This document shows, in pieces, positions 6,148 through 22,583 of a stretch of 39,133 bases of DNA. The notes under the pieces were generated by a model, which searched no databases, was not told the DNA's origin, and saw nothing but the letters and a program-made list of their open reading frames with translations. The position numbers and the translations under genes are program-made. Each line of letters begins with the position of its first letter. Within the stretch, counting starts at the first letter, position 1. The DNA is from Escherichia phage vB_EcoP-22664BS1. The stretch lies in the sequence record MZ234009.1; one strand, given 5' to 3'.

Positions 6148-6159
6148 ATCTCTTAAGTG

Positions 6160-6205
6160 TTAGACTCAAGGTCATTACTGTGTGTAGTGGCCTTTATGGT
6201 TAACA
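6160..6205 (+). promoter_or_regulatory. Conserved hairpin element (RNase III processing-site-like, R18.5 position)
   Basis: agactcaaggtc...gtggcctttatgg motif shared with elements at 15301 and 22521 and with recalled T7 RNase III sites. Confidence 0.45.
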
Positions 6206-6257
6206 CTAACTAGTGGAGGAGACTCTACGTGAAATCTGATAAACCGGGAGGGCAACT

Positions 6258-6707: not shown

Positions 6708-8467
6708 GTAAAGACTTAGTGGCGCGTCAGGCGCTAATGACTGCACGTATGAAGTCAGACTTCGTGTTCTTCCTGTTCGTCCTGTGGAAAGCTCTGTCGC
6801 TCCCAGTCCCTACTCGCTGTCAGATTGACATGGCGAAGAAACTATCGGCTGGGGACAACAGGCGCTTCATCCTACAGGCGTTCCGTGGTATAGGGAAGTC
6901 CTTCATTACGTGTGCCTTCGTTGTCTGGAAGCTATGGAACAACCCAGACTTGAAGTTCATGATTGTGTCGGCCTCAAAGGAACGAGCCGATGCTAACTCC
7001 ATCTTCATCAAGCGAATCATCGACCTCATGCCTCAGCTTCAGGAACTCAAACCTAAGCAGGGTCAGCGAGATGCGGTTATCAGCTTCGACGTTGGACCGG
7101 CTAAGCCAGACCACTCACCTTCGGTTAAGTCCGTTGGTATCACTGGTCAGTTGACTGGTAGTCGTGCTGACATCCTGATTGCCGATGACGTGGAGGTTCC
7201 GAACAACTCAGCGACTCAGGCTGCACGAGACCGTCTATCAGAGCTTGTGAAAGAGTTCGACGCTATCCTGAAGCCGGGAGGTACGATCATCTATCTGGGT
7301 ACTCCTCAGAACGAGATGACACTGTATCGTGAGCTGGAAGGTCGTGGGTACACCACTACTATCTGGCCCGCTCGTTATCCACGCGACAGGAAGGACTGGC
7401 AGTCTTACGGTGACCGTCTGGCACCGATGCTTCAGGTAGAGCTTGAAGAGGACCCTGAGTCCTTCTACTGGCGTCCGACTGATGAAGTACGCTTCGATGA
7501 TACGGACCTGAAGGAGCGTGAGCTGTCCTACGGTAAAGCTGGCTTCGCTCTACAGTTCATGCTTAACCCGAACCTGAGTGATGCTGAGAAGTATCCTCTT
7601 AAGCTCCGTGACCTTATCGTAGCCGACTTGGACCCAGCGTCCAGCCCAATGGTCTACCAATGGTTGCCAAACCCTCAGAACAAGCGTGAGGACGTTCCTA
7701 ACGTGGGACTCATGGGTGACTCGTACCACACGTATCAGACTGTAGGTTCTGCCTTCAGCTCATACACCCAGAAGATTCTGGTCATTGACCCTAGTGGTCG
7801 TGGTAAGGATGAAACTGGTTATGCGGTACTGTATCAGCTCAACGGCTACATCTTCGCTATGGAAGTAGGTGGTATGCGTGGTGGCTATGAAGACTCTACT
7901 CTGGAAGCACTGGCTAAGATTGGTCGTAAGTGGAAGGTCAACGAATACGTCATTGAGGGTAACTTCGGTGATGGTATGTACCTTGAGCTATTCAAGCCTG
8001 TAGCGGCCCGTATCCATCCTGCTGCTGTAACCGAAGTGAAGAGTAAGGGTCAGAAAGAACTCCGCATCTGTGACGTTCTTGAGCCTATCATGGGGTCTCA
8101 CCGACTTATCGTCAACGCTGCTGCTATCGTCCAAGACTATCAGACAGCCTCTGACAAGGATGGTGTTCGTAACCCTATCTACTCTCTCTTCTACCAGATG
8201 ACACGTATCTCTCGTGAACGTGGAGCCTTGGCACACGATGACCGACTTGATGCGCTGGCTATAGGTGTACAGTTCTTCGTTGAGTCTATGGCTAAGGATG
8301 CCAACAAGGGAGAACGTGAAGTCACTGAGGAGTGGCTGGAGGAACAGATGGAGAACCCACGGAAAGGCTTCGAGTCCATCCACACTGAGTTCTGGGACAA
8401 TGGGGTCCGGGTAACTCACAATACGGACGACGAGCTTGGACTAGGGTCATACGTTACGTTCCACTAG
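6704..8467 (+). CDS. 19: Terminase large subunit (gp19), probable TTG start
   Basis: Strong colinear similarity to T7 gp19 ([21 protein letters not shown]...[18 protein letters not shown]...); RBS aaggagg 6 nt before TTG. Confidence 0.95.
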
Positions 8468-8476
8468 CTGAATGAA

Positions 8477-8513
8477 TAACTATAGGTGAAAGCTGCATGA
8501 ATAAGCAGGTAGT
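8477..8513 (+). other. Perfect 10-bp inverted repeat (aactataggt / acctatagtt) forming a potential hairpin just downstream of gene 19
   Basis: Read directly from sequence; no downstream U-tract. Confidence 0.4.
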
Positions 8514-8561
8514 AACCTATAGTTACTACCAGTCTAACATACTGTTTTACAAGGAGTTTGG

Positions 8562-8584
8562 ACTTAACTATCACTATAGGGAAG
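8562..8584 (+). promoter_or_regulatory. Phage RNAP promoter near right genome end (phiOR-like)
   Basis: acttaactatcactatagggaag matches promoter family. Confidence 0.65.
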
Positions 8585-8764
8585 ACCCCCGGTTACTTAT
8601 AGTATTACTGTAGTGAATATACATATGCAGACTTTATGCAAGACCTTAGGAGGCAGACTCCGAGTTATTACCTAAGGCTTGCACCGATGGAAGGAGGGTG
8701 ATATTAATCATAATCCCTCCAATACAGATAGTCACCGACCATAGATACAGGAGGTATGTAGCAT

Positions 8765-8923
8765 ATGGCAAAGACCAAAGCTGTACTTAAAGCTCTGGCG
8801 ACCAATCGAGCTACATACAGGTTTCTTGCTGCTGTTCTACTTGCTGCTGGCGTTACTGCTGGAAGTCAGTGGGTCGGGTGGGTCGAGACTCTCGTATGTA
8901 CTCTGGTCTCTCAGTGTAATTAA
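8765..8923 (+). CDS. Small hydrophobic protein (52 aa), gene 19.5 position
   Basis: ATG preceded by aggagg; ORF below the 60-aa track cutoff, translated by hand (MAKTKAVLKALATNRATYRFLAAVLLAAGVTAGSQWVGWVETLVCTLVSQCN). Confidence 0.4.
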   Translation: MAKTKAVLKALATNRATYRFLAAVLLAAGVTAGSQWVGWVETLVCTLVSQCN

Positions 8924-9085
8924 CGCAATCATGGTAACGATTCATGAGCGGAAGACCTAAGGTCAGTACGTGGATAAAGACTCACTATACTGACCTTAGC
9001 TACTGTAGTCAAGGACTTTAGGTAACACCTTAAGAGAAGCTCACTTAGGGTCATCCTACTTATTGGTCTATCCTAGTGTCGCCTG

Positions 9086-9130
9086 ACCTACGGTCCTTGA
9101 CCTACAGTGGCTGTGGCCTACAGTAGTGAC
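9086..9130 (+). repeat. Short direct repeats (cctacRgt x3) at inferred right genome end
   Basis: cctacggt...cctacagt...cctacagt seen in sequence. Confidence 0.5.
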
Positions 9131-9163
9131 GATGAGTTTTGGACCAAAAGTTTGAGACCACAT

Positions 9164-9350
9164 CTCACACTTCAAGAACCTCAAGTCTCCCCATAGGTCC
9201 TCTTTAAGTCCAGACCAAAGGCCCTACCACAGTCTATCATAAGGTTAGACCGATGGTCCAGACTTCAGGTCAACGATAGGTCTAGGCTATGGCTTAGGGA
9301 AGGACGATAGGTTGGGACTATGGGTCTGTCTTTGAGTCTCTATCTGTATC
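9164..9350 (+). repeat. Approximate terminal repeat / genome-end region (single collapsed copy); boundaries estimated
   Basis: tctcacacttcaagaacctcaagtctccccatagg resembles the T7 left end (TCTCACAGTGTACGGACCTAAAGTTCCCCCATAGG); followed by gtctgtctttgagtctctatctgt like the end of the T7 terminal repeat. Confidence 0.45.
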
Positions 9351-9351
9351 A

Positions 9352-9452
9352 GACCTTGAGTCACTACCTACAGTCTAACTACCTACAGTCTAACTACCTA
9401 CAGTCATCGACCATCGGTAATGCCGCTACCTACAGTCATCGACCTACAGTTA
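9352..9452 (+). repeat. Array of short direct repeats (ctaactacctacagt; at least 5 copies of cctacagt) inside the left end
   Basis: Seen directly; analogous position to the CCTAAAG repeat array next to the T7 terminal repeat. Confidence 0.6.
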
Positions 9453-9561
9453 ATAGACACAAGGCTATAGACTTAAGGTCTAAGACATGTTAGTCAAAGA
9501 CTATATCCTCTTACACCATGGGGCCGACGATAGCTTAATCAATATTATTTCGAATTACCTA

Positions 9562-9590
9562 TTGACTATAGGTCCAGACTATGGCCTAAT
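9562..9590 (+). promoter_or_regulatory. Candidate host sigma70 early promoter (A1-like): TTGACT, 17-bp spacer, CCTAAT
   Basis: -35 perfect, -10 weak; position about 400 bp from inferred left end. Confidence 0.3.
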
Positions 9591-9701
9591 AGCTTCCGTC
9601 AACACGACACGGCAACAACCGGATAGTGAAGACGCCGGTCCGGTCCGGTTAAGTAGTCAGCCTGTAAGACATACGAACAACAGGCAACCGACAGAAAGTA
9701 G

Positions 9702-9731
9702 TTGACAAGCAGTAACGATAAGATGTAAGAT
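9702..9731 (+). promoter_or_regulatory. Candidate host sigma70 early promoter (A3-like): TTGACA, 18-bp spacer, TAAGAT
   Basis: Strong resemblance to recalled T7 A3 promoter region including downstream gtaccacat and ctctttaacaatctgg. Confidence 0.55.
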
Positions 9732-9850
9732 GTACCACATCGAAACAACGGTGAGTCCCAACACTGAAACGGGATAGCACGGCGACGACAGCCAACGCGA
9801 ATGCTCTTTAACAATCTGGATAAACTCTTAATGTGCGCCGATAGCGACTA

Positions 9851-9902
9851 ACTACAGGGTCTTTGAGTCTACATCTGAAGGCCCTGACTGATAGTCACTA
9901 AC
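9851..9902 (+). promoter_or_regulatory. Early-region conserved element (actacagg...ggcctgactgatagtcactaac), putative RNase III processing site
   Basis: One of four related copies, each preceding an early gene. Confidence 0.35.
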
Positions 9903-9909
9903 TTAAAGG

Positions 9910-10164
9910 ATGGACACTATGAAACACTTAAGCACAATCACTAATCGCAATGAAGTATTCGTGAACACTAAAGGTTATGCGTGGATTCAGCTTAAAGAGA
10001 TGACAGGAGCGCGTCACCGTGTGGTAGTGCGCAAGGTATCAAGCAAGCAGTTCAGCAACTACAGCGTCGATACTGTGCGTATAGACAACGAGACATACCT
10101 GATAGACTCGCAGATAACCGTGAGTCCTACAGTGGGCGTCTCAGCTCCTTATTTCGCTAACTGA
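9910..10164 (+). CDS. Early protein, unknown function (84 aa)
   Basis: ORF track; RBS aaggatgg; first gene after host promoters. Confidence 0.5.
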   Translation: MDTMKHLSTITNRNEVFVNTKGYAWIQLKEMTGARHRVVVRKVSSKQFSNYSVDTVRIDNETYLIDSQITVSPTVGVSAPYFAN

Positions 10165-10173
10165 GAGTGATTA

Positions 10174-10219
10174 ACTACAGGTCGTTAGACTGATAGCGGC
10201 CTGACTGATAGTCACTAAC
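10174..10219 (+). promoter_or_regulatory. Early-region conserved element, copy 2
   Basis: actacaggtcgttagactgatagcggcctgactgatagtcactaac. Confidence 0.35.
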
Positions 10220-10247
10220 ACATAATTAACTTTGAGAGGATATAACT

Positions 10248-10754
10248 ATGGAACGTAATGCTAACGCATACTATGAGCTGCTGGCTGCAACCGTTGAGGC
10301 ATTTATCGAGCGTATTCAGTACGACCACCTGACTCAAGATGACGACTACAGCGATGCGCTGCATGAGGTCGTAGACGGTCAGGTTCCTCACTATTACCAC
10401 GAGATTTTTACGGTGATGGCTGCTGATGGTATAGACAACGAGTTCGAAGACTCTGGGATGATACCTGAAACCAAGGACGTAACGCGTATCCTACAAGCTC
10501 GCATCTATGAGGCACTTTATAACGACGTGTCTAATAGCTTGGATGTAGTCTGGTTTGAGGATGAAGAGGCAGACGAAGAGGATGAATATTGGGTAGTTGA
10601 CGCTAAAACAGGCGCAATAATTGTGCAAGCTGTAGCTCTTGAGGTCGCTACTGCATGTGCCAAGGTTAACTATGCGGCAGGTCGCCACCTGAAGGTGGAA
10701 GACATCAATGATAACGTAGTGTTCGACCCTGCGGCTGAGGACTGCGAGCGATGA
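10248..10754 (+). CDS. 0.3: Ocr-like DNA-mimic anti-restriction protein (gp0.3 homolog) with about 50-aa C-terminal extension
   Basis: [43 protein letters not shown] matches T7 Ocr core; acidic stretch [10 protein letters not shown]; 168 aa versus 117 aa in T7. Confidence 0.8.
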
Positions 10755-10900
10755 TAACTTACGGTTTATGCCAGCACCACGTCACCAACGCCCGGCTTAT
10801 GGTCAAGACCGGGCAGTTAGACCACGATTGGGCTATGCGTCTCTTGAAAGTGGTCTACAGGAGACGCAAGCGTATACACGACAGTTTACACGCTAAGTGA
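10751..10900 (+). CDS. Small basic protein (49 aa), ATGA overlap with Ocr stop
   Basis: Hand-translated [49 protein letters not shown]; no clear RBS, translational coupling possible. Confidence 0.3.
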
Positions 10901-10903
10901 CAG

Positions 10904-10947
10904 ACTACAGGTCATCAATGCTGGTGGCCTGACTGATAGTCATTAAC
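10904..10947 (+). promoter_or_regulatory. Early-region conserved element, copy 3
   Basis: actacaggtcatcaatgctggtggcctgactgatagtcattaac. Confidence 0.35.
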
Positions 10948-10963
10948 AACTGAGAGGGAAGAT

Positions 10964-11191
10964 ATGAACACAATCACTGGTGCCATAACCAAAGGTTTTC
11001 GAGCAATTTTCGGTGAAACGCAAGAAGTATGCACCAATCATAAATTCGTACTTTCTTGCGTAGCAGGTGACGAGTTTGACGGGTTCGATAAACTGGTGGT
11101 TTGCGACCATTGCGGACAAGAGGCTATCCAACACTCAAACGGTAAATTTGAATTAATAGACGATAGCCTTACAGAAGGAGACGGCGAGTAA
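10964..11191 (+). CDS. Early small protein with four Cys (C-x8-C...C-x2-C), putative zinc ribbon
   Basis: ORF track; RBS gagggaag; cysteine pattern in translation. Confidence 0.5.
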   Translation: MNTITGAITKGFRAIFGETQEVCTNHKFVLSCVAGDEFDGFDKLVVCDHCGQEAIQHSNGKFELIDDSLTEGDGE

Positions 11192-11323
11192 CCTAAATAA
11201 ACAGGAGAGAACCAAATCATAGCTTGACCATAACACTGACGTGATGGTACTGAGTGATAGACGAGAGGTCATCGACTGATAGGTGGCCTCAAAGATTACC
11301 ACTTACATTGATAGGAGTTAACT

Positions 11324-11428
11324 ATGAGCACTGCAATCATCTGGACTATCTCAGGCTTCGTAGCGTGGGGAATGTTTACTCTAGTCTGCAAACTACCGGT
11401 CCTTACTCAACTGTTATGGGGCTTATGA
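11324..11428 (+). CDS. Small hydrophobic peptide (34 aa)
   Basis: Strong RBS aggag 6 nt before ATG; hand-translated MSTAIIWTISGFVAWGMFTLVCKLPVLTQLLWGL; stop overlaps next start (ATGA). Confidence 0.35.
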   Translation: MSTAIIWTISGFVAWGMFTLVCKLPVLTQLLWGL

Positions 11429-11628
11429 CTTTGAGTATCGCACTATTGATAGCCATAGGCTATGGACTTATCGCCTACGTGCTGGTGAGAGACATCAACA
11501 AAGCGCGTAAAGTCTACAAATTCAACTATGTACGTCTGGGTAGCTGGACTGTACGTCAACCTAACGGACGATTCATGCGTAACTTAGCGAACGTCTGGGC
11601 TATAGCAACACTTGGGAGCAAACTGTAA
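11425..11628 (+). CDS. Early small membrane protein (67 aa)
   Basis: In frame with track ORF 11254..11628; predicted TM helix (LSIALLIAIGYGLIAYVLV); ATGA coupling to the upstream peptide. Confidence 0.45.
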   Translation: MTLSIALLIAIGYGLIAYVLVRDINKARKVYKFNYVRLGSWTVRQPNGRFMRNLANVWAIATLGSKL

Positions 11629-11954
11629 TGAACAAGTCATACGGGATTAATCTGGTACACTCTATGGACGCAGACATGCAAATGTTAAGCCTACTGGCTA
11701 CCGGGTATCGTCACGGAACGTCAAGTCACTCCGCACGTCAACAGCAGGAGCGGGACCGGGTACTGCAAGCAAGACTCCGGGCTGAGGGCCATAAGTCCGA
11801 ACTAATGTGTCTGGCGTATGGTGGACGACCAATCACTGACGATGGTAAACTTTTAGTCTCAGGCTGGAAGGCGATAGACCAACGGTCAACCATCAAGCAC
11901 ACTACTCATGGTGACTTCAGTCATCTCCACGCTAACCCGCTGATATGCAAGTAA
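11628..11954 (+). CDS. Early protein, unknown function (108 aa), immediately upstream of RNAP where T7 carries gene 0.7
   Basis: ORF track; TAATG overlap with upstream gene. Confidence 0.5.
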   Translation: MNKSYGINLVHSMDADMQMLSLLATGYRHGTSSHSARQQQERDRVLQARLRAEGHKSELMCLAYGGRPITDDGKLLVSGWKAIDQRSTIKHTTHGDFSHLHANPLICK

Positions 11955-11959
11955 TTCTG

Positions 11960-11982
11960 ACTTAACTATCACTATAGGACTC
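11960..11982 (+). promoter_or_regulatory. Phage RNAP promoter upstream of the RNAP gene (A at +3)
   Basis: acttaactatcactataggact matches promoter family; lies about 75 nt upstream of gene 1 start. Confidence 0.6.
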
Positions 11983-12051
11983 AAGGTCTAAGACTCCAAG
12001 TGAAAGACCAAAGAGACTTTAAGTGAAAGACTAATAACAAGGACTTTAAGT

Positions 12052-14733
12052 ATGAGCGTCATCTCTATTGACAAGCACGACTTCTCTGATGTGTCGAACG
12101 CCATTGAGCCGTTTAACCTACTGGCTGACCACTACGGGCAAGACCTTGCAGTCAAACAGCTTCAGCTTGAGCACGAGGCATACACTGAAGGCGAGCGACG
12201 TTTCATCAAGAACCTTGAGCGCCAGACCGAGCGCGGGGAACTGGCAGACAATCAGGTAGCCAAGCCTCTTATGCAGACTCTTGTTCCTAAGATTGTGCAA
12301 GCCGTCAAGGAGTGGCACGAAGGTCCAGACGGGAAGCTGTCAACCTCTCGTCCGAGCGTAGCGTTCACCATGTTGAGCACTGAAGAGAAGGCCGTAAAGG
12401 ACCGCTCTTTGCGCATCTCCTGCGAATCTGCTGCGGTTATCATACTGAAGGTCATACTCTCCAAGCTGATCAAGCCTGAAGGGATACCGATTACACCGAT
12501 GGCATCCGCGATAGGGCGCACACTTGAGGACGAAATCCGCTTCGGTCGCATCCGTGACAAGGAGAAAGAGCACTTCAAGAAGGCGATAGCTGATAACCTG
12601 AATAAGCGGGCCGGGGCGTCCTACAAGAAAGCCTACATGCAAGCGGTCGAGGCATCCATGCTGGAGCAAGGCCAACTGGAAGATGCGTGGGGGACTTGGA
12701 GTCCTACAGAGGCTGTCCACGTTGGCGTCAAGATGCTTGAGATTGTCATCCAGTCAACACAACTGGTAGAGCTTAAGCGGTACGGTGCTGGCAATGCAGC
12801 GGCTGACGTTGAGATGGTCCACCTGTCAGACTTCTGGGTCAAGAAGATGGCACAACGAGGATTCAGCCTTGCGGGTATCGCTCCAGTCTACCAGCCTTGC
12901 GTCGTTCCACCTAAGCCGTGGACCGGTGTCGTAGGAGGTGGGTACTGGGCCAAAGGACGCAGACCACTGCCACTGATTCGCTTAGGGTCTAAGTCTGCGG
13001 TGGCACGTTACGAAGACGTGTACATGCCTGAAGTCTATGACGCTGTGAATATCATCCAGAATACACCTTGGAAAGTGAACAAGAAGGTTCTGGACGTGGT
13101 GAACATGGTCGAGAAGCTGAACAACACGCCTATTGATGACATCCCTCAGATGGAACCGCTGAAGCCTGAGGACTATGCGGGTGAGACTGAAGAAGAACTC
13201 AAGGCATGGAAGAAGGCTGCTGCTGGTATCTATCGCCGCGAGAAGGCCAGACAGTCACGAAGATTGTCACTGAGCTTTATCGTCAACCAAGCGAACAAGT
13301 TCTCTCAGTTCAAGGCCATCTGGTTCCCGTATAACATGGACTGGCGTGGGCGCGTCTACGCTGTTCCGATGTTCAACCCTCAGGGTAACGACATGCAGAA
13401 GGGTCTTCTGACTCTGGCAGTCGGTAAGCCTATTGGTGCTGATGGTTTCAAATGGCTGAAGGTCCACGGTGCAAACTGCGCGGGTGTCGATAAAGTCACC
13501 TTCGAGGAGCGTATCAAGTGGGTGGAAGATAACCACGACAACATCATGGCTGCTGCTAAGGCGCCGATGGATAGTATTGAGTGGTGGGGCAAGTTAGACT
13601 CTCCGTTCTGCTTCCTAGCGTTCTGCTTCGAGTATGCTGGCGTAATGCACCACGGCTTGTCTTACTCCTGCTCGCTGCCGATAGCGTTCGATGGGTCCTG
13701 CTCTGGGATTCAGCACTTCAGCGCTATGCTTCGCGACCACATCGGTGGACATGCAGTAAACCTGACGCCATCCGGTAAGGTCCAAGACATCTACCGAATC
13801 GTGTCTGACCGCATTGAGGAGGAGCTTAAAGTCCTACTGGTTAACGGTACGGACAACGAGATGGTAACTCACGAGGACAAGAAAACTGGTGAGATTACCG
13901 AGCGTCTCAAGCTGGGGACACGAGAGCTTGCCAGTCAGTGGCTTACCTACGGTATGTCACGAAAGGTCACTAAGCGTTCGGTCATGACTCTGGCCTACGG
14001 GTCGAAAGAGTACGGCTTCGCAGACCAAGTTTACGAGGACATCGTGATGCCAGCGATTGACTCAGGGTCTGGCGCTATGTTCACTGAACCAAGCCAAGCA
14101 TCTCGCTTCATGGCTAAGATGATTTGGGAAGCTGTGAGTGTGACCGTAGTTGCTGCGGTTGACGCGATGAAATGGCTTCAGGGTGCTGCCAAGCTGCTTG
14201 CTGCTGAAGTGAAGGACAAGAAGACTGGAGAAATCCTGAAGCCTTGTCTTCCGGTACACTGGGTCACACCTGATGGTTTCCCTGTCTGGCAGGAATACCG
14301 CAAGAAGGACACCACTCGTCTGAACCTGATGTTCTTAGGGTCATTCAACCTTCAGCCTACCGTCAACAAAGGCACGAAGAAAGAGCTGGACAAGCACAAG
14401 CAGGAGTCAGGCATTAGCCCGAACTTCGTCCACTCACAAGATGGTAGCCACCTCCGCAAGACTGTAGTCCACACGCATCGCAAGTACGGCGTGATGTCAT
14501 TCGCAGTGATTCACGATAGCTTCGGGACCATCCCGGCTGACGCTGAGTATCTGTTCCGTGGAGTCCGTGAGACGATGGTCGAGACCTACCGCGACAACGA
14601 TGTGCTGCTTGACTTCTACGAGCAGTTTGAATACCAGCTTCACGAGAGCCAGAGAGACAAGTTGCCTGAGCTTCCGAAGAAAGGTAAACTGAATATCGAA
14701 GACATCTTGTCTTCAGACTTTGCATTCGCTTAA
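12052..14733 (+). CDS. 1: Single-subunit DNA-directed RNA polymerase (gp1)
   Basis: Extensive colinear identity to T7 RNAP (FNLLADHYG, PCVVPPKPWTG, WFPYNMDWRGRVYAV, DGSCSGIQHFSAML, HDSFGT, C-terminal DFAFA). Confidence 0.97.
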   Translation: MSVISIDKHDFSDVSNAIEPFNLLADHYGQDLAVKQLQLEHEAYTEGERRFIKNLERQTERGELADNQVAKPLMQTLVPKIVQAVKEWHEGPDGKLSTSRPSVAFTMLSTEEKAVKDRSLRISCESAAVIILKVILSKLIKPEGIPITPMASAIGRTLEDEIRFGRIRDKEKEHFKKAIADNLNKRAGASYKKAYMQAVEASMLEQGQLEDAWGTWSPTEAVHVGVKMLEIVIQSTQLVELKRYGAGNAAADVEMVHLSDFWVKKMAQRGFSLAGIAPVYQPCVVPPKPWTGVVGGGYWAKGRRPLPLIRLGSKSAVARYEDVYMPEVYDAVNIIQNTPWKVNKKVLDVVNMVEKLNNTPIDDIPQMEPLKPEDYAGETEEELKAWKKAAAGIYRREKARQSRRLSLSFIVNQANKFSQFKAIWFPYNMDWRGRVYAVPMFNPQGNDMQKGLLTLAVGKPIGADGFKWLKVHGANCAGVDKVTFEERIKWVEDNHDNIMAAAKAPMDSIEWWGKLDSPFCFLAFCFEYAGVMHHGLSYSCSLPIAFDGSCSGIQHFSAMLRDHIGGHAVNLTPSGKVQDIYRIVSDRIEEELKVLLVNGTDNEMVTHEDKKTGEITERLKLGTRELASQWLTYGMSRKVTKRSVMTLAYGSKEYGFADQVYEDIVMPAIDSGSGAMFTEPSQASRFMAKMIWEAVSVTVVAAVDAMKWLQGAAKLLAAEVKDKKTGEILKPCLPVHWVTPDGFPVWQEYRKKDTTRLNLMFLGSFNLQPTVNKGTKKELDKHKQESGISPNFVHSQDGSHLRKTVVHTHRKYGVMSFAVIHDSFGTIPADAEYLFRGVRETMVETYRDNDVLLDFYEQFEYQLHESQRDKLPELPKKGKLNIEDILSSDFAFA

Positions 14734-15280: not shown

Positions 15281-15303
15281 CCTAAACTATCACTATAGGC
15301 TTA
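15281..15303 (+). promoter_or_regulatory. Phage RNAP promoter (phi1.1-like)
   Basis: cctaaactatcactataggc. Confidence 0.65.
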
Positions 15304-15345
15304 GACTCAAGGTCATGACTCAAAGTCGTGGCCTTCATGATTAAC
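15301..15345 (+). promoter_or_regulatory. Conserved hairpin element (RNase III-like, R1.1 position)
   Basis: ttagactcaaggtcatgactcaaagtcgtggccttcatgatta. Confidence 0.45.
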
Positions 15346-15376
15346 CCTAAATAAACACTACTGGAGATTTAACCGT

Positions 15377-22354: not shown

Positions 22355-22519
22355 ATGCTACGAAAACTTAAAGCTCGCTACCATCGGTTCATGTACAAAT
22401 GGTGGAGCGATGAAGCAACCTTCCTGTCCAACATTCTGGGAGACCAGAGGTTCGACTCTGAGGCATGGAAGAAAGCTAACCGGAAGTTCATGTATCACTT
22501 CTTGCGTACAGACTTCTAG
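22355..22519 (+). CDS. Small protein (54 aa), gene 4.3/4.5 position
   Basis: RBS gaggaga; hand-translated MLRKLKARYHRFMYKWW... Confidence 0.4.
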   Translation: MLRKLKARYHRFMYKWWSDEATFLSNILGDQRFDSEAWKKANRKFMYHFLRTDF

Positions 22520-22520
22520 G

Positions 22521-22566
22521 TCTAGACTCAAGGTCATTCATAGCGAGTGGCCTTTATGATTAGACT
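22521..22566 (+). promoter_or_regulatory. Conserved hairpin element (RNase III-like, R4.7 position)
   Basis: tctagactcaaggtcattcatagcgagtggcctttatgatta closely resembles a recalled T7 RNase III site. Confidence 0.5.
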
Positions 22567-22583
22567 AAAGCGGAGGATTAACC

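Follow-up and report, generated by a model that had tools for sequence, protein, structure and literature searches.

Positions 9910 to 11954 of the genome of Escherichia phage vB_EcoP-22664BS1 (MZ234009.1), a stretch of 39,133 nucleotides that we call the window here, hold a run of small open reading frames (ORFs) upstream of the RNA polymerase gene, gene 1. We conclude, with a probability of roughly three in four, that this region represents the early, class I operon of a Kayfunavirus, a K1F/LM33_P1-like relative of T7, whose transcript would be cut by RNase III into modules and whose gp0.35, encoded by the ORF that overlaps the ocr stop codon, is a relative of T7 Gp0.4. An earlier annotation made from the letters of the DNA (the sequence-only reading) rightly recognized the early region of a T7-like phage and proposed that small genes of no assigned function replace the T7 0.4-0.7 block. 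The latter proposal stands for 0.6 and 0.7, the only genes of that block that lack a detectable counterpart in the window; a homolog of 0.4 (gp0.35), the R0.5 hairpin, and a hydrophobic peptide in the 0.5 slot are retained. Because gp0.35 belongs to the Gp0.4 family and occupies the same slot, the block has not simply been replaced.

A megablast search with positions 9800-12060 matched 235 phage records. The closest is Escherichia phage vB_EcoP-101136BS1 (MZ234024; Kayfunavirus LM33P1), which shares 99.8% identity across 2,261 bp; next come LM33_P1 (99.0%) and K1F (92% across 71% of the query). The window represents a permuted, near-complete genome, with the terminase gene ending at 8467 and the genome ends and repeats located at about 8600-9500. 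Ocr and the six further ORFs that had been listed are all present on the + strand, at 9910-10164 (for which 9919 is the likelier start), 10248-10754 (Ocr), 10751-10900, 10964-11191, 11324-11428, 11425-11628, and 11628-11954. Three junctions overlap: ocr and the next ORF share ATGA at 10751-10754, the 11324 and 11425 ORFs share ATGA at 11425-11428, and the 11425 and 11628 ORFs meet in TAATG at 11626-11630. All of these ORFs are labeled "hypothetical protein" in MZ234024, and the K1F record (AM084414) names their counterparts gp0.2, 0.3, 0.35, 0.37, and 0.38. The region has thus been sequenced many times already, without functional characterization; a transcriptome paper (PMC12645636) contains nothing on Kayfunavirus early genes, and an accessory-gene screen (bioRxiv 2023.04.06.535777) makes no mention of K1F, LM33, or T7-like phages.

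Four hairpins homologous to T7 RNase III sites divide the operon

Four repeated elements separate the early genes, and they are homologous to the T7 RNase III sites R0.3, R0.5, and R1, so that the comparison with T7 processing sites drawn in the sequence-only reading is borne out:

9840..9906, + strand: RNase III-type hairpin R-a, upstream of gp0.2; covariance model (CM) score 60.1 bits, E 1.4e-11; minimum free energy (MFE) -22.9 kcal/mol, z -3.67
10163..10223, + strand: RNase III-type hairpin R-b, at the T7 R0.3 position directly 5' of ocr and aligned with T7 R0.3; CM 71.6 bits, E 3e-14; MFE -23.8 kcal/mol, z -4.59
10893..10951, + strand: RNase III-type hairpin R-c, which comes with the inserted cassette as an additional site that K1F lacks; CM 69.1 bits, E 1.2e-13; MFE -19.3 kcal/mol, z -2.38
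11250..11310, + strand: RNase III-type hairpin R-d, the T7 R0.5 ortholog by alignment, conserved in K1F; CM 60.4 bits, E 1.3e-11; z -3.45

K1F has only three hairpin sites in the corresponding stretch. In the folds of all four copies (-19 to -24 kcal/mol), a small, asymmetric internal loop separates a lower stem of 8-9 bp from an upper stem of 10 bp, and every copy folds better than its own shuffles (z -2.4 to -4.6). Aligned with T7 R0.3, R0.5, and R1, at site coordinates that we take to be those of Dunn & Studier 1983, they have the core ACNNAGGTC...GGTGGCCT...ATGAT..TCACT in common. The fourth copy (11250-11310) is diverged, is nearest to T7 R0.5, and lacks the consensus ggcctgactgatagtcactaac that had been quoted for all four; the family is also larger than first described, as three more copies lie outside the region.

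We trained the CM on these seven sequences, the four window copies and T7 R0.3, R0.5, and R1. The four copies receive scores of 60-72 bits (E 1e-11 to 3e-14), and the CM finds three further + strand sites in the window, at 6153-6214 (56.7 bits), 15294-15355 (41.3 bits), and 22516-22573 (40.6 bits). Of these, the first precedes the terminase gene, and the second sits just 3' of gene 1, where it overlaps the phage promoter at 15282-15301, an arrangement that resembles the T7 phi1.1A/R1.1 pair. Across 44 related loci, the CM identifies 73 sites, every one of them intercistronic and on the + strand. T7 R1.1 (locus L004, 5846-5902), which was outside the training set, is recovered at 40.6 bits, and the unrelated, donor-type siphovirus locus of phage XY1 gives no match. 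Pairing holds for 94.9% of cells over the 73 sites, compared with 77% for shuffles and 28-52% for slid-partner controls, a level of pairing that is inflated by the fitting of the alignment to the CM, and compensatory double changes occur at 15 of the 19 pairs.

Features labeled "rho-independent terminator" in the record of phage ASO2B (MZ726794, L003), at 1060-1095, 1860-1892, and 2298-2333, coincide with CM hairpins at 1045-1105, 1845-1902, and 2283-2343. These WebGeSTer predictions and the G+C-rich upper stems are what would be expected if the hairpins were terminators or attenuators between early genes. We consider this very improbable, as no U-tract lies 3' of any of the four hairpins, a terminator scan found no + strand site in 8400-12200, the covariation reaches past the internal loop into the lower stem in the manner of RNase III-type architecture, and the elements are homologous to T7 R sites, with R1.1 recovered by the CM. 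The ASO2B annotation is probably misassigned because the U-tract and a + strand terminator-scan match are both lacking.

The T7 early transcript has five RNase III cleavage sites, and the 0.7 kinase of T7 stimulates the enzyme (PMC4858673). By analogy with T7, host RNA polymerase would start at the sigma-70 promoter at about 9702-9731 and produce one long transcript into gene 1, which host RNase III would cut at the four predicted processing sites, 9840-9906, 10163-10223, 10893-10951, and 11250-11310. Four modules would result: gp0.2; Ocr with gp0.35; the 10964 cassette; and a 34-amino-acid (aa) peptide with gp0.37, gp0.38, and gene 1. Ocr (anti-restriction), gp0.35, gp0.37 (membrane-anchored), and gp0.38 form the conserved set, with the 34-aa peptide filling a variable slot, and gp0.2 and the 10964 product are accessory genes, common to unrelated phage families, in variable hairpin-bounded slots. 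Unlike T7, the window phage keeps RNase III-type sites without the kinase: a tblastn search of the whole 39-kb window with T7 gp0.7 gave a best E of 1.4, in agreement with the absence reported by the sequence-only reading, and gp0.7 occurs in 908 other phage records.

The strand and order of the T7 class I operon are preserved, from host promoter, hairpin, ocr with an overlapping gene, and hairpin to a hydrophobic peptide coupled to the next gene and then gene 1; the hairpins, ocr, and the gene that follows it are homologous to those of T7 (0.3 and 0.4 for the two genes). The window differs from T7 in having no 0.7 kinase, 0.6 homolog, or R1, in a 0.5-slot peptide that is unrelated in sequence, and in the addition of two hairpin-bounded modules (gp0.2 and 10964) and of gp0.37 and gp0.38. 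A comparative map of 14 loci reveals the same order of slots. A variable slot upstream of ocr holds gp0.2, orf58, or orf92, each with its own hairpin; a hairpin, ocr, and gp0.35 follow; the slot after gp0.35 is empty or holds orf115 with a hairpin, 10964 with a hairpin, or orf58/59/66; hairpin R-d comes next, then a hydrophobic peptide that varies among loci (the gp0.36 of K1F, the 34-aa peptide, or one like T7 0.5); and gp0.37, gp0.38, and gene 1 close the operon.

The gene overlapping the ocr stop codon belongs to the Gp0.4 family

10751..10900, + strand: K1F gp0.35-family ORF, 49 aa, placed in the T7 Gp0.4 (FtsZ inhibitor) superfamily as a diverged member; its translation is coupled to that of ocr through the ATGA at 10751-10754

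To place gp0.35 among its relatives, we took 41 Ocr-encoding viral contigs and compared the ORFs that overlap their ocr stop codons. Besides an unrelated family of 36-39 aa, these ORFs fall mainly into three groups: group A is Kayfunavirus gp0.35, group B is a "MIKYGLT" group from Klebsiella K5-2-like phages, and group C is the Gp0.4 of T7 and PP74. All three groups carry the pattern YGL(T/C)...(A/L)M..L...Y...K. In a database of 743 ORFs, the hidden Markov model (HMM) of each group matches the other two groups with E values down to 6e-8, and ORFs at all other positions stay at E 0.05 or worse, which leaves zero false positives among the 743. In a profile-profile comparison (hhalign), group A aligns with an enlarged Gp0.4 group (T7, PP74, MP2, PP81, and P1338) over 51 columns at a probability of 96.9% (E 1.3e-10), against at most 1.1% for 30 reversed or column-shuffled controls. 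The PHROG assignments are reciprocal: gp0.35 falls in phrog_5058 and weakly matches phrog_7202 (E 7.6e-4), and T7 Gp0.4 is phrog_7202 and matches phrog_5058 (E 9e-5). A member of this kind occupies the same slot, across the end of ocr, in four genera (T7, PP74, K5-2-like, and Kayfunavirus loci).

Judged by its sequence, gp0.35 is therefore a diverged member of the Gp0.4 family. It resembles T7 Gp0.4 in its length of about 50 aa, its slot, homology over the full length of the profiles, the YGL(T/C) N-terminal motif, and the AM..LK..Y...K helix. In BLASTP, the two align in register with 34% identity over 41 aa (overall identity is about 27-34%), but the homology is missed by plain BLAST, in agreement with a negative in the literature (PMC9372555). 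The relationship is well supported and apparently previously unreported.

T7 Gp0.4 is an FtsZ inhibitor, as Kiro et al. are said to have found in 2013. According to a 2026 study, it forms two antiparallel helices on the synergy-loop face of FtsZ, its toxicity is lost in V15A, V22A, W28A, M32A, L35A, and Y39A, and both W28L and W28A abolish FtsZ binding (PMC13423816). Residues A12, T14, L16, S19, R23, and K36 are required only for sensing by the defense system CapRel(Ebc), which senses Gp0.4 in complex with FtsZ; the same study notes that Gp0.4 is not in all Autographiviridae (PMC13423816). The alignment assigns the following residues to the two sets in the window protein:

FtsZ contacts: T7 V15, V22, W28, M32, L35, Y39; window V, V, H, M, L, Y; 5 of 6 identical
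CapRel(Ebc) sensing residues: T7 A12, T14, L16, S19, R23, K36; window Q, H, T, R, K, K; 1 of 6 identical

The differences from T7 Gp0.4 thus comprise W28 to His and changes in five of the six CapRel(Ebc) residues. Dhanoa et al. 2022 reported that K1F mislocalizes FtsZ and filaments cells, yet "lacks the 0.4 genes," and described the inhibitor as "currently unknown" (PMC9372555). We consider it fairly probable that gp0.35 is the FtsZ inhibitor of K1F-type phages and, like Gp0.4, would bind FtsZ and block cell division; our greatest reservation is the His where Gp0.4 has W28.

That His is also the chief argument for a different history, in which gp0.35 shares the ancestry of Gp0.4 but has changed target, and another early protein inhibits FtsZ in K1F-type phages. 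A substitution at a position where Leu or Ala inactivates the T7 protein, the low overall identity, and the fast evolution of the gp0.35 family would all accommodate such a switch. We nevertheless regard it as rather unlikely, given that five of the six contact residues are identical, that M32 and Y39 are invariant in 37 of 37 sequences from the three subfamilies, that the W28 position alternates between His, Phe, Tyr, and Trp even within the T7-like subgroup (where PP81 has His), and that K1F does perturb FtsZ (PMC9372555).

Several points count against our interpretation of the operon and of gp0.35. The His at the W28 position may mean that FtsZ binding is lost or altered, and the substitutions in gp0.35, counted per codon position 1/2/3 against related loci as our test of coding, are an unusual 123/51/91, with the second position most constrained and a fast rate of evolution. 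The functional claims for the window phage derive from homology. The CM-fitted alignment inflates the pairing reported above, the single sigma-70 match is not enriched and promoter-like sites in the region do not exceed those in shuffles, and the structure predictions for the 10964 product and gp0.38 are of low confidence. The assignment of the region to a Kayfunavirus class I operon with a Gp0.4 relative keeps, with these points included, the probability given at the outset.

Two accessory genes occupy hairpin-bounded slots

9919..10164, + strand: K1F gp0.2-family ORF, 81 aa (MKHLST...), a mobile accessory cassette; phrog_10124, E 1e-39; alternative start at 9910
10944..11217, + strand: horizontally acquired cassette, comprising ORF 10964-11191 (75 aa; C23/H26/C32/C47/C50) and an orphan ribosome-binding site after its stop codon

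The start of gp0.2 is more likely the ATG at 9919 because a Shine-Dalgarno sequence, AAGGA at 9906-9910, overlaps the ATG at 9910; the shorter, 81-aa form is also the one annotated in K1F and MZ234024. Homologs of gp0.2 are present in 118 phage records, among them Klebsiella T7-like phages (about 70% identity), the 151-kb phage nepoznato (70%), and N4-like phages (35-51%), and gp0.2 is found in just 5 of the related loci. It has no Pfam, NCBIfam, or PDB match.

The second cassette is 87% identical in DNA to Kagunavirus vB_EcoS_XY1 over 275 bp, a segment that includes the 5' leader, the gene (gp58 in XY1; 93% aa identity), and the ribosome-binding site of the donor's next gene. After that ribosome-binding site, the donor continues as ...caaATG into its next gene and the window as ...caaatcatag, with no gene. 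The orphan ribosome-binding site in the window suggests transfer from siphovirus to podovirus. The XY1 homolog is an early gene too, the first gene behind a sigma-70 promoter and divergent from a DicA-like repressor. The settings differ in that gp58 is the first gene of an operon and has no RNase III hairpin, whereas 10964 is an isolated cistron between two hairpins.

The 10964 product is present in 56 phage records, including Kayfunavirus relatives and many phages of 43-46 kb. The latter, which make up most of the listed matches at 90-93%, include the Kagunavirus vB_EcoS_XY1, Golestan, JSSK01, K1ind1, and Bas70, mostly at 90-93% aa identity (K1ind1, 74%). Only six clusters match among 5.8 billion proteins. 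Its substitutions (3/2/21) indicate coding constraint. The sequence-only reading had seen a four-Cys putative zinc ribbon in this protein. The four cysteines, C23, C32, C47, and C50, are there and, together with H26, are invariant in the product and five full-length homologs (6 sequences); the ribbon itself is not established. With one CxxC (C47-C50), one CxxH (C23-H26), and C32, the pattern would fit a metal site and not a canonical double-CxxC ribbon. The AlphaFold2 (AF2) model is beta-rich and of low confidence (predicted local distance difference test [pLDDT], 54.7); its best Foldseek match in the PDB has an E of 0.8, and the sequence has no Pfam match.

The position of the cassettes raises the possibility that the hairpin repeats act mainly as DNA homology patches for cassette swapping, with RNA processing secondary. 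Copies of the element do bound variable cassettes in related phages, extra cassettes bring an extra copy (R-c in the window; loci L003, L005, and L013), and the acquired 10964 segment begins inside the 3' edge of R-c. An acquisition through hairpin homology with the donor siphovirus was considered and rejected, as the CM finds no match at the donor locus; with no element beside the donor gene, that transfer took place without hairpin homology. The compensatory base changes, moreover, show selection on RNA structure, and RNase III has been proven to cleave T7 members of this family (PMC4858673). We therefore judge a primary role as homology patches improbable and retain predicted RNase III processing as the function of the hairpins.

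A variable peptide and two conserved genes precede gene 1

11324..11428, + strand: 34-aa hydrophobic peptide in the "0.5 slot"; maximum Kyte-Doolittle (KD) hydropathy (19-aa window) 1.82; replaces the 55-aa gp0.36 of K1F
11425..11628, + strand: K1F gp0.37-family ORF, 67 aa; alternative start at 11416; phrog_2385, E 4e-31; KD maximum (19-aa window) 2.45; substitutions 52/32/91
11628..11954, + strand: K1F gp0.38-family ORF, 108 aa, always just upstream of gene 1; phrog_7066, E 6e-46; substitutions 47/22/160

The hydropathy maxima and the ATGA at 11425-11428 agree with the earlier description of the first two as small membrane proteins with a coupled overlap. The substitution counts of gp0.37 and gp0.38 indicate clear constraint on coding. 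The length, frame, and ATGA overlap of the 34-aa ORF are kept in five sequences with conservative replacements, the most diverged of which is about 84-86% identical in DNA. The peptide has no homology to T7 gp0.5 or K1F gp0.36, and T7 gp0.5 and gp0.6 give no BLAST or PHROG cross-matches with ORFs of the window. Position and hydrophobic character alone are shared with T7 gp0.5, and the R0.5 hairpin architecture is retained.

The gp0.37 protein, found in essentially all Kayfunavirus records, has one strong N-terminal transmembrane helix and a conserved basic tail (TVRxPNGRF). The family extends to other Studiervirinae: homologs with 34-42% identity occur in Klebsiella K5-2-like phages and Pectobacterium phage PP74, and PP81 has a family member. 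In PP74, the homolog directly follows a gp0.5 homolog, in the "0.6 slot." We examined and rejected homology to T7 gp0.6A: an hhalign probability of 83% was due to the misplaced protein PP81_gp02 and falls to 0.3% without it. That protein (Pectobacterium phage PP81, KY124276, L050, 309-488) is annotated "homologues to T7 gp0.6"; by sequence it belongs to the gp0.37 family, with a transmembrane helix and FTTRSPKGRF...VAT, and is unrelated to T7 0.6A.

The gp0.38 protein has a variable N-terminus and an invariant C-terminal TTxGDFSHLH motif. It is present in 221 phage records (143 homologs) and restricted to Kayfunavirus and a few relatives. An HMM search retrieved 12 clusters among 1.84 billion representatives, none informative and one a coiled-coil false positive, and the AF2 model is of low confidence (pLDDT, 56.8). 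The GDF motif and the place before gene 1 had made gp0.38 a candidate remnant of the C-terminal shut-off domain of gp0.7, which we rejected (hhalign, 0.2% against 18 gp0.7 proteins). Enterobacter phage vB_EclP_26 (PP869411, L047), which also carries an S-adenosylmethionine hydrolase and a short 0.7-type kinase, has a 70-aa ORF at 2393-2605 that ends in the gp0.38 motif TTKGDFSHLHANPLICK and lies directly before the RNA polymerase gene; because of this ORF, the motif and its adjacency to gene 1 extend beyond Kayfunavirus. Neither gp0.37 nor gp0.38 has a detectable relative of known function.

Compared with K1F, which is of the same genus and has the same hairpins, gp0.2 is 96% identical, Ocr 80%, gp0.35 80%, gp0.37 91%, and the gp0.38 core 77%. 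The window differs in its extra 10964 cassette with R-c, the 34-aa peptide in place of the 55-aa gp0.36, and a longer, different gp0.38 N-terminus.

Are the small ORFs, then, new anti-defense inhibitors that replace T7 0.4-0.7, each blocking a host immune system as Ocr does? Their early position next to ocr speaks for it, as do the variable slots of gp0.2 and 10964 and their presence in unrelated phage families, which are typical of counter-defense or takeover accessory genes. Scans of Pfam, NCBIfam, and PHROG also match no small ORF to a housekeeping or structural family, matches that the sequence-only reading had named as refuting its proposal; NCBIfam gave nothing meaningful, Rfam gave nothing at E <= 1, and PDB sequence searches with gp0.2, the 10964 product, and gp0.38 gave no match. 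As an account of the whole block, we find this doubtful. As a member of the Gp0.4 FtsZ-inhibitor family, gp0.35 does not count as a replacement; gp0.37 and gp0.38 are not variable but conserved across nearly all loci; and relatives of gp0.37 in other genera often co-occur with the 0.7 kinase, so that gp0.37 is no substitute for it. Apart from Ocr, no ORF resembles a characterized anti-defense protein. The earlier suggestion of host-takeover or anti-defense candidates is accordingly narrowed to gp0.2 and 10964, whose slot occupancy and cross-family transfer fit it without proving it, with Ocr alone matching a characterized inhibitor family. The favored reading remains a T7-type class I operon with a conserved core and exchangeable modules.

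Ocr, promoters, and flanking features

9702..9731, + strand: sigma-70-type early promoter (TTGACA-18-TAAGAT), by its position the likely start of the early polycistronic transcript; 10/12 matches in a consensus scan
10248..10754, + strand: Ocr (gene 0.3) DNA mimic, 168 aa; Pfam PF08684, E 7e-29; phrog_2568; 48% identity to T7 Ocr over 110 aa
11961..11980, + strand: phage-RNA-polymerase promoter (CTTAACTATCACTATAGGAC), directly upstream of gene 1; 1 of 11 + strand consensus matches
12052..14733, + strand: gene 1, single-subunit RNA polymerase, an 893-aa ORF annotated as DNA-directed RNA polymerase in MZ234024, which ends the block of small genes

The Pfam match of Ocr reaches 100.7 bits against a gathering cut-off of 25, and its substitutions (452/394/1646) have the strong third-position bias of coding constraint. 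At 168 aa, Ocr is longer than in T7 (117 aa) and most related loci (110-116 aa). The additional C-terminal stretch of about 55 aa (residues ~115-168) is also found in K1F, ASO2B, and loci L005-L007, the Ocr of locus L041 is similarly long (173 aa), and a Pfam scan gave no family match for the extension. One E. coli contig of 1,867 bp encodes a 129-aa protein (P0167) in which the N-terminal domain of Ocr is joined to the last 24 residues of the 10964 product; this looks like a deletion that fused ocr and the 10964 gene in some relative. This kinase-free region matches a stretch that carries a "protein kinase" feature in LT594300 (LM33_P1) and MZ398247 (IME177). In RefSeq, the LM33_P1 copy reads "ocr-like anti-restriction" where LT594300 reads "protein kinase," and the kinase label is probably a mislabeled ocr.

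The early promoter presumably resembles T7 A2/A3. Matches to the phage promoter consensus number 11 on the + strand of the window, with 0 expected by chance. T7 has the RNase III site R1 and the E. coli promoter C before gene 1; the window has a phage promoter there and no R1 hairpin, as the CM finds no hairpin between 11310 and 15294. The sequence at 11961-11980 suggests that the phage RNA polymerase may transcribe its own gene.

Upstream of the operon, ORF 9487-9705 (gp0.1 in K1F; hypothetical in MZ234024) has substitutions of 57/53/63, without codon-position bias, and its 3' end falls within the -35 box of the sigma-70-like early promoter (9702-9731). This ORF probably does not represent a gene. 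Tandem 15-nucleotide repeats, ACTACCTACAGTCTA in three or four copies, and related ACCTACAGT motifs lie at 9363-9450 in the non-coding left end, upstream of the early promoter.

Implications for Kayfunavirus biology

Our analysis adds to this often-sequenced region a homology for gp0.35 that addresses a published open question, two mobile cassettes that cross phage families, and a tested RNA model of the processing sites. The question left by Dhanoa et al. 2022 gains a 49-aa candidate with predicted key residues. More tentatively, and at somewhat less than even odds, we propose that gp0.35 may be the "unknown" K1F FtsZ inhibitor with its FtsZ face kept and the opposite, CapRel(Ebc)-read face rewritten, a natural immune-escape variant, and that the gp0.2 and 10964 cassettes, mobile among podo-, sipho-, myo-, and N4-like phages of Enterobacteria, may be new host-takeover or anti-defense effectors. 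The hairpin-bounded layout separates conserved from exchangeable early genes and places gp0.2 and 10964 on a shortlist for anti-defense and toxicity screens in therapeutic Kayfunavirus phages such as LM33_P1. If the proposal for gp0.35 is true, it would be a family member whose FtsZ face is conserved and whose sensor face has diverged, and thereby a natural test of how phages escape CapRel(Ebc) sensing.

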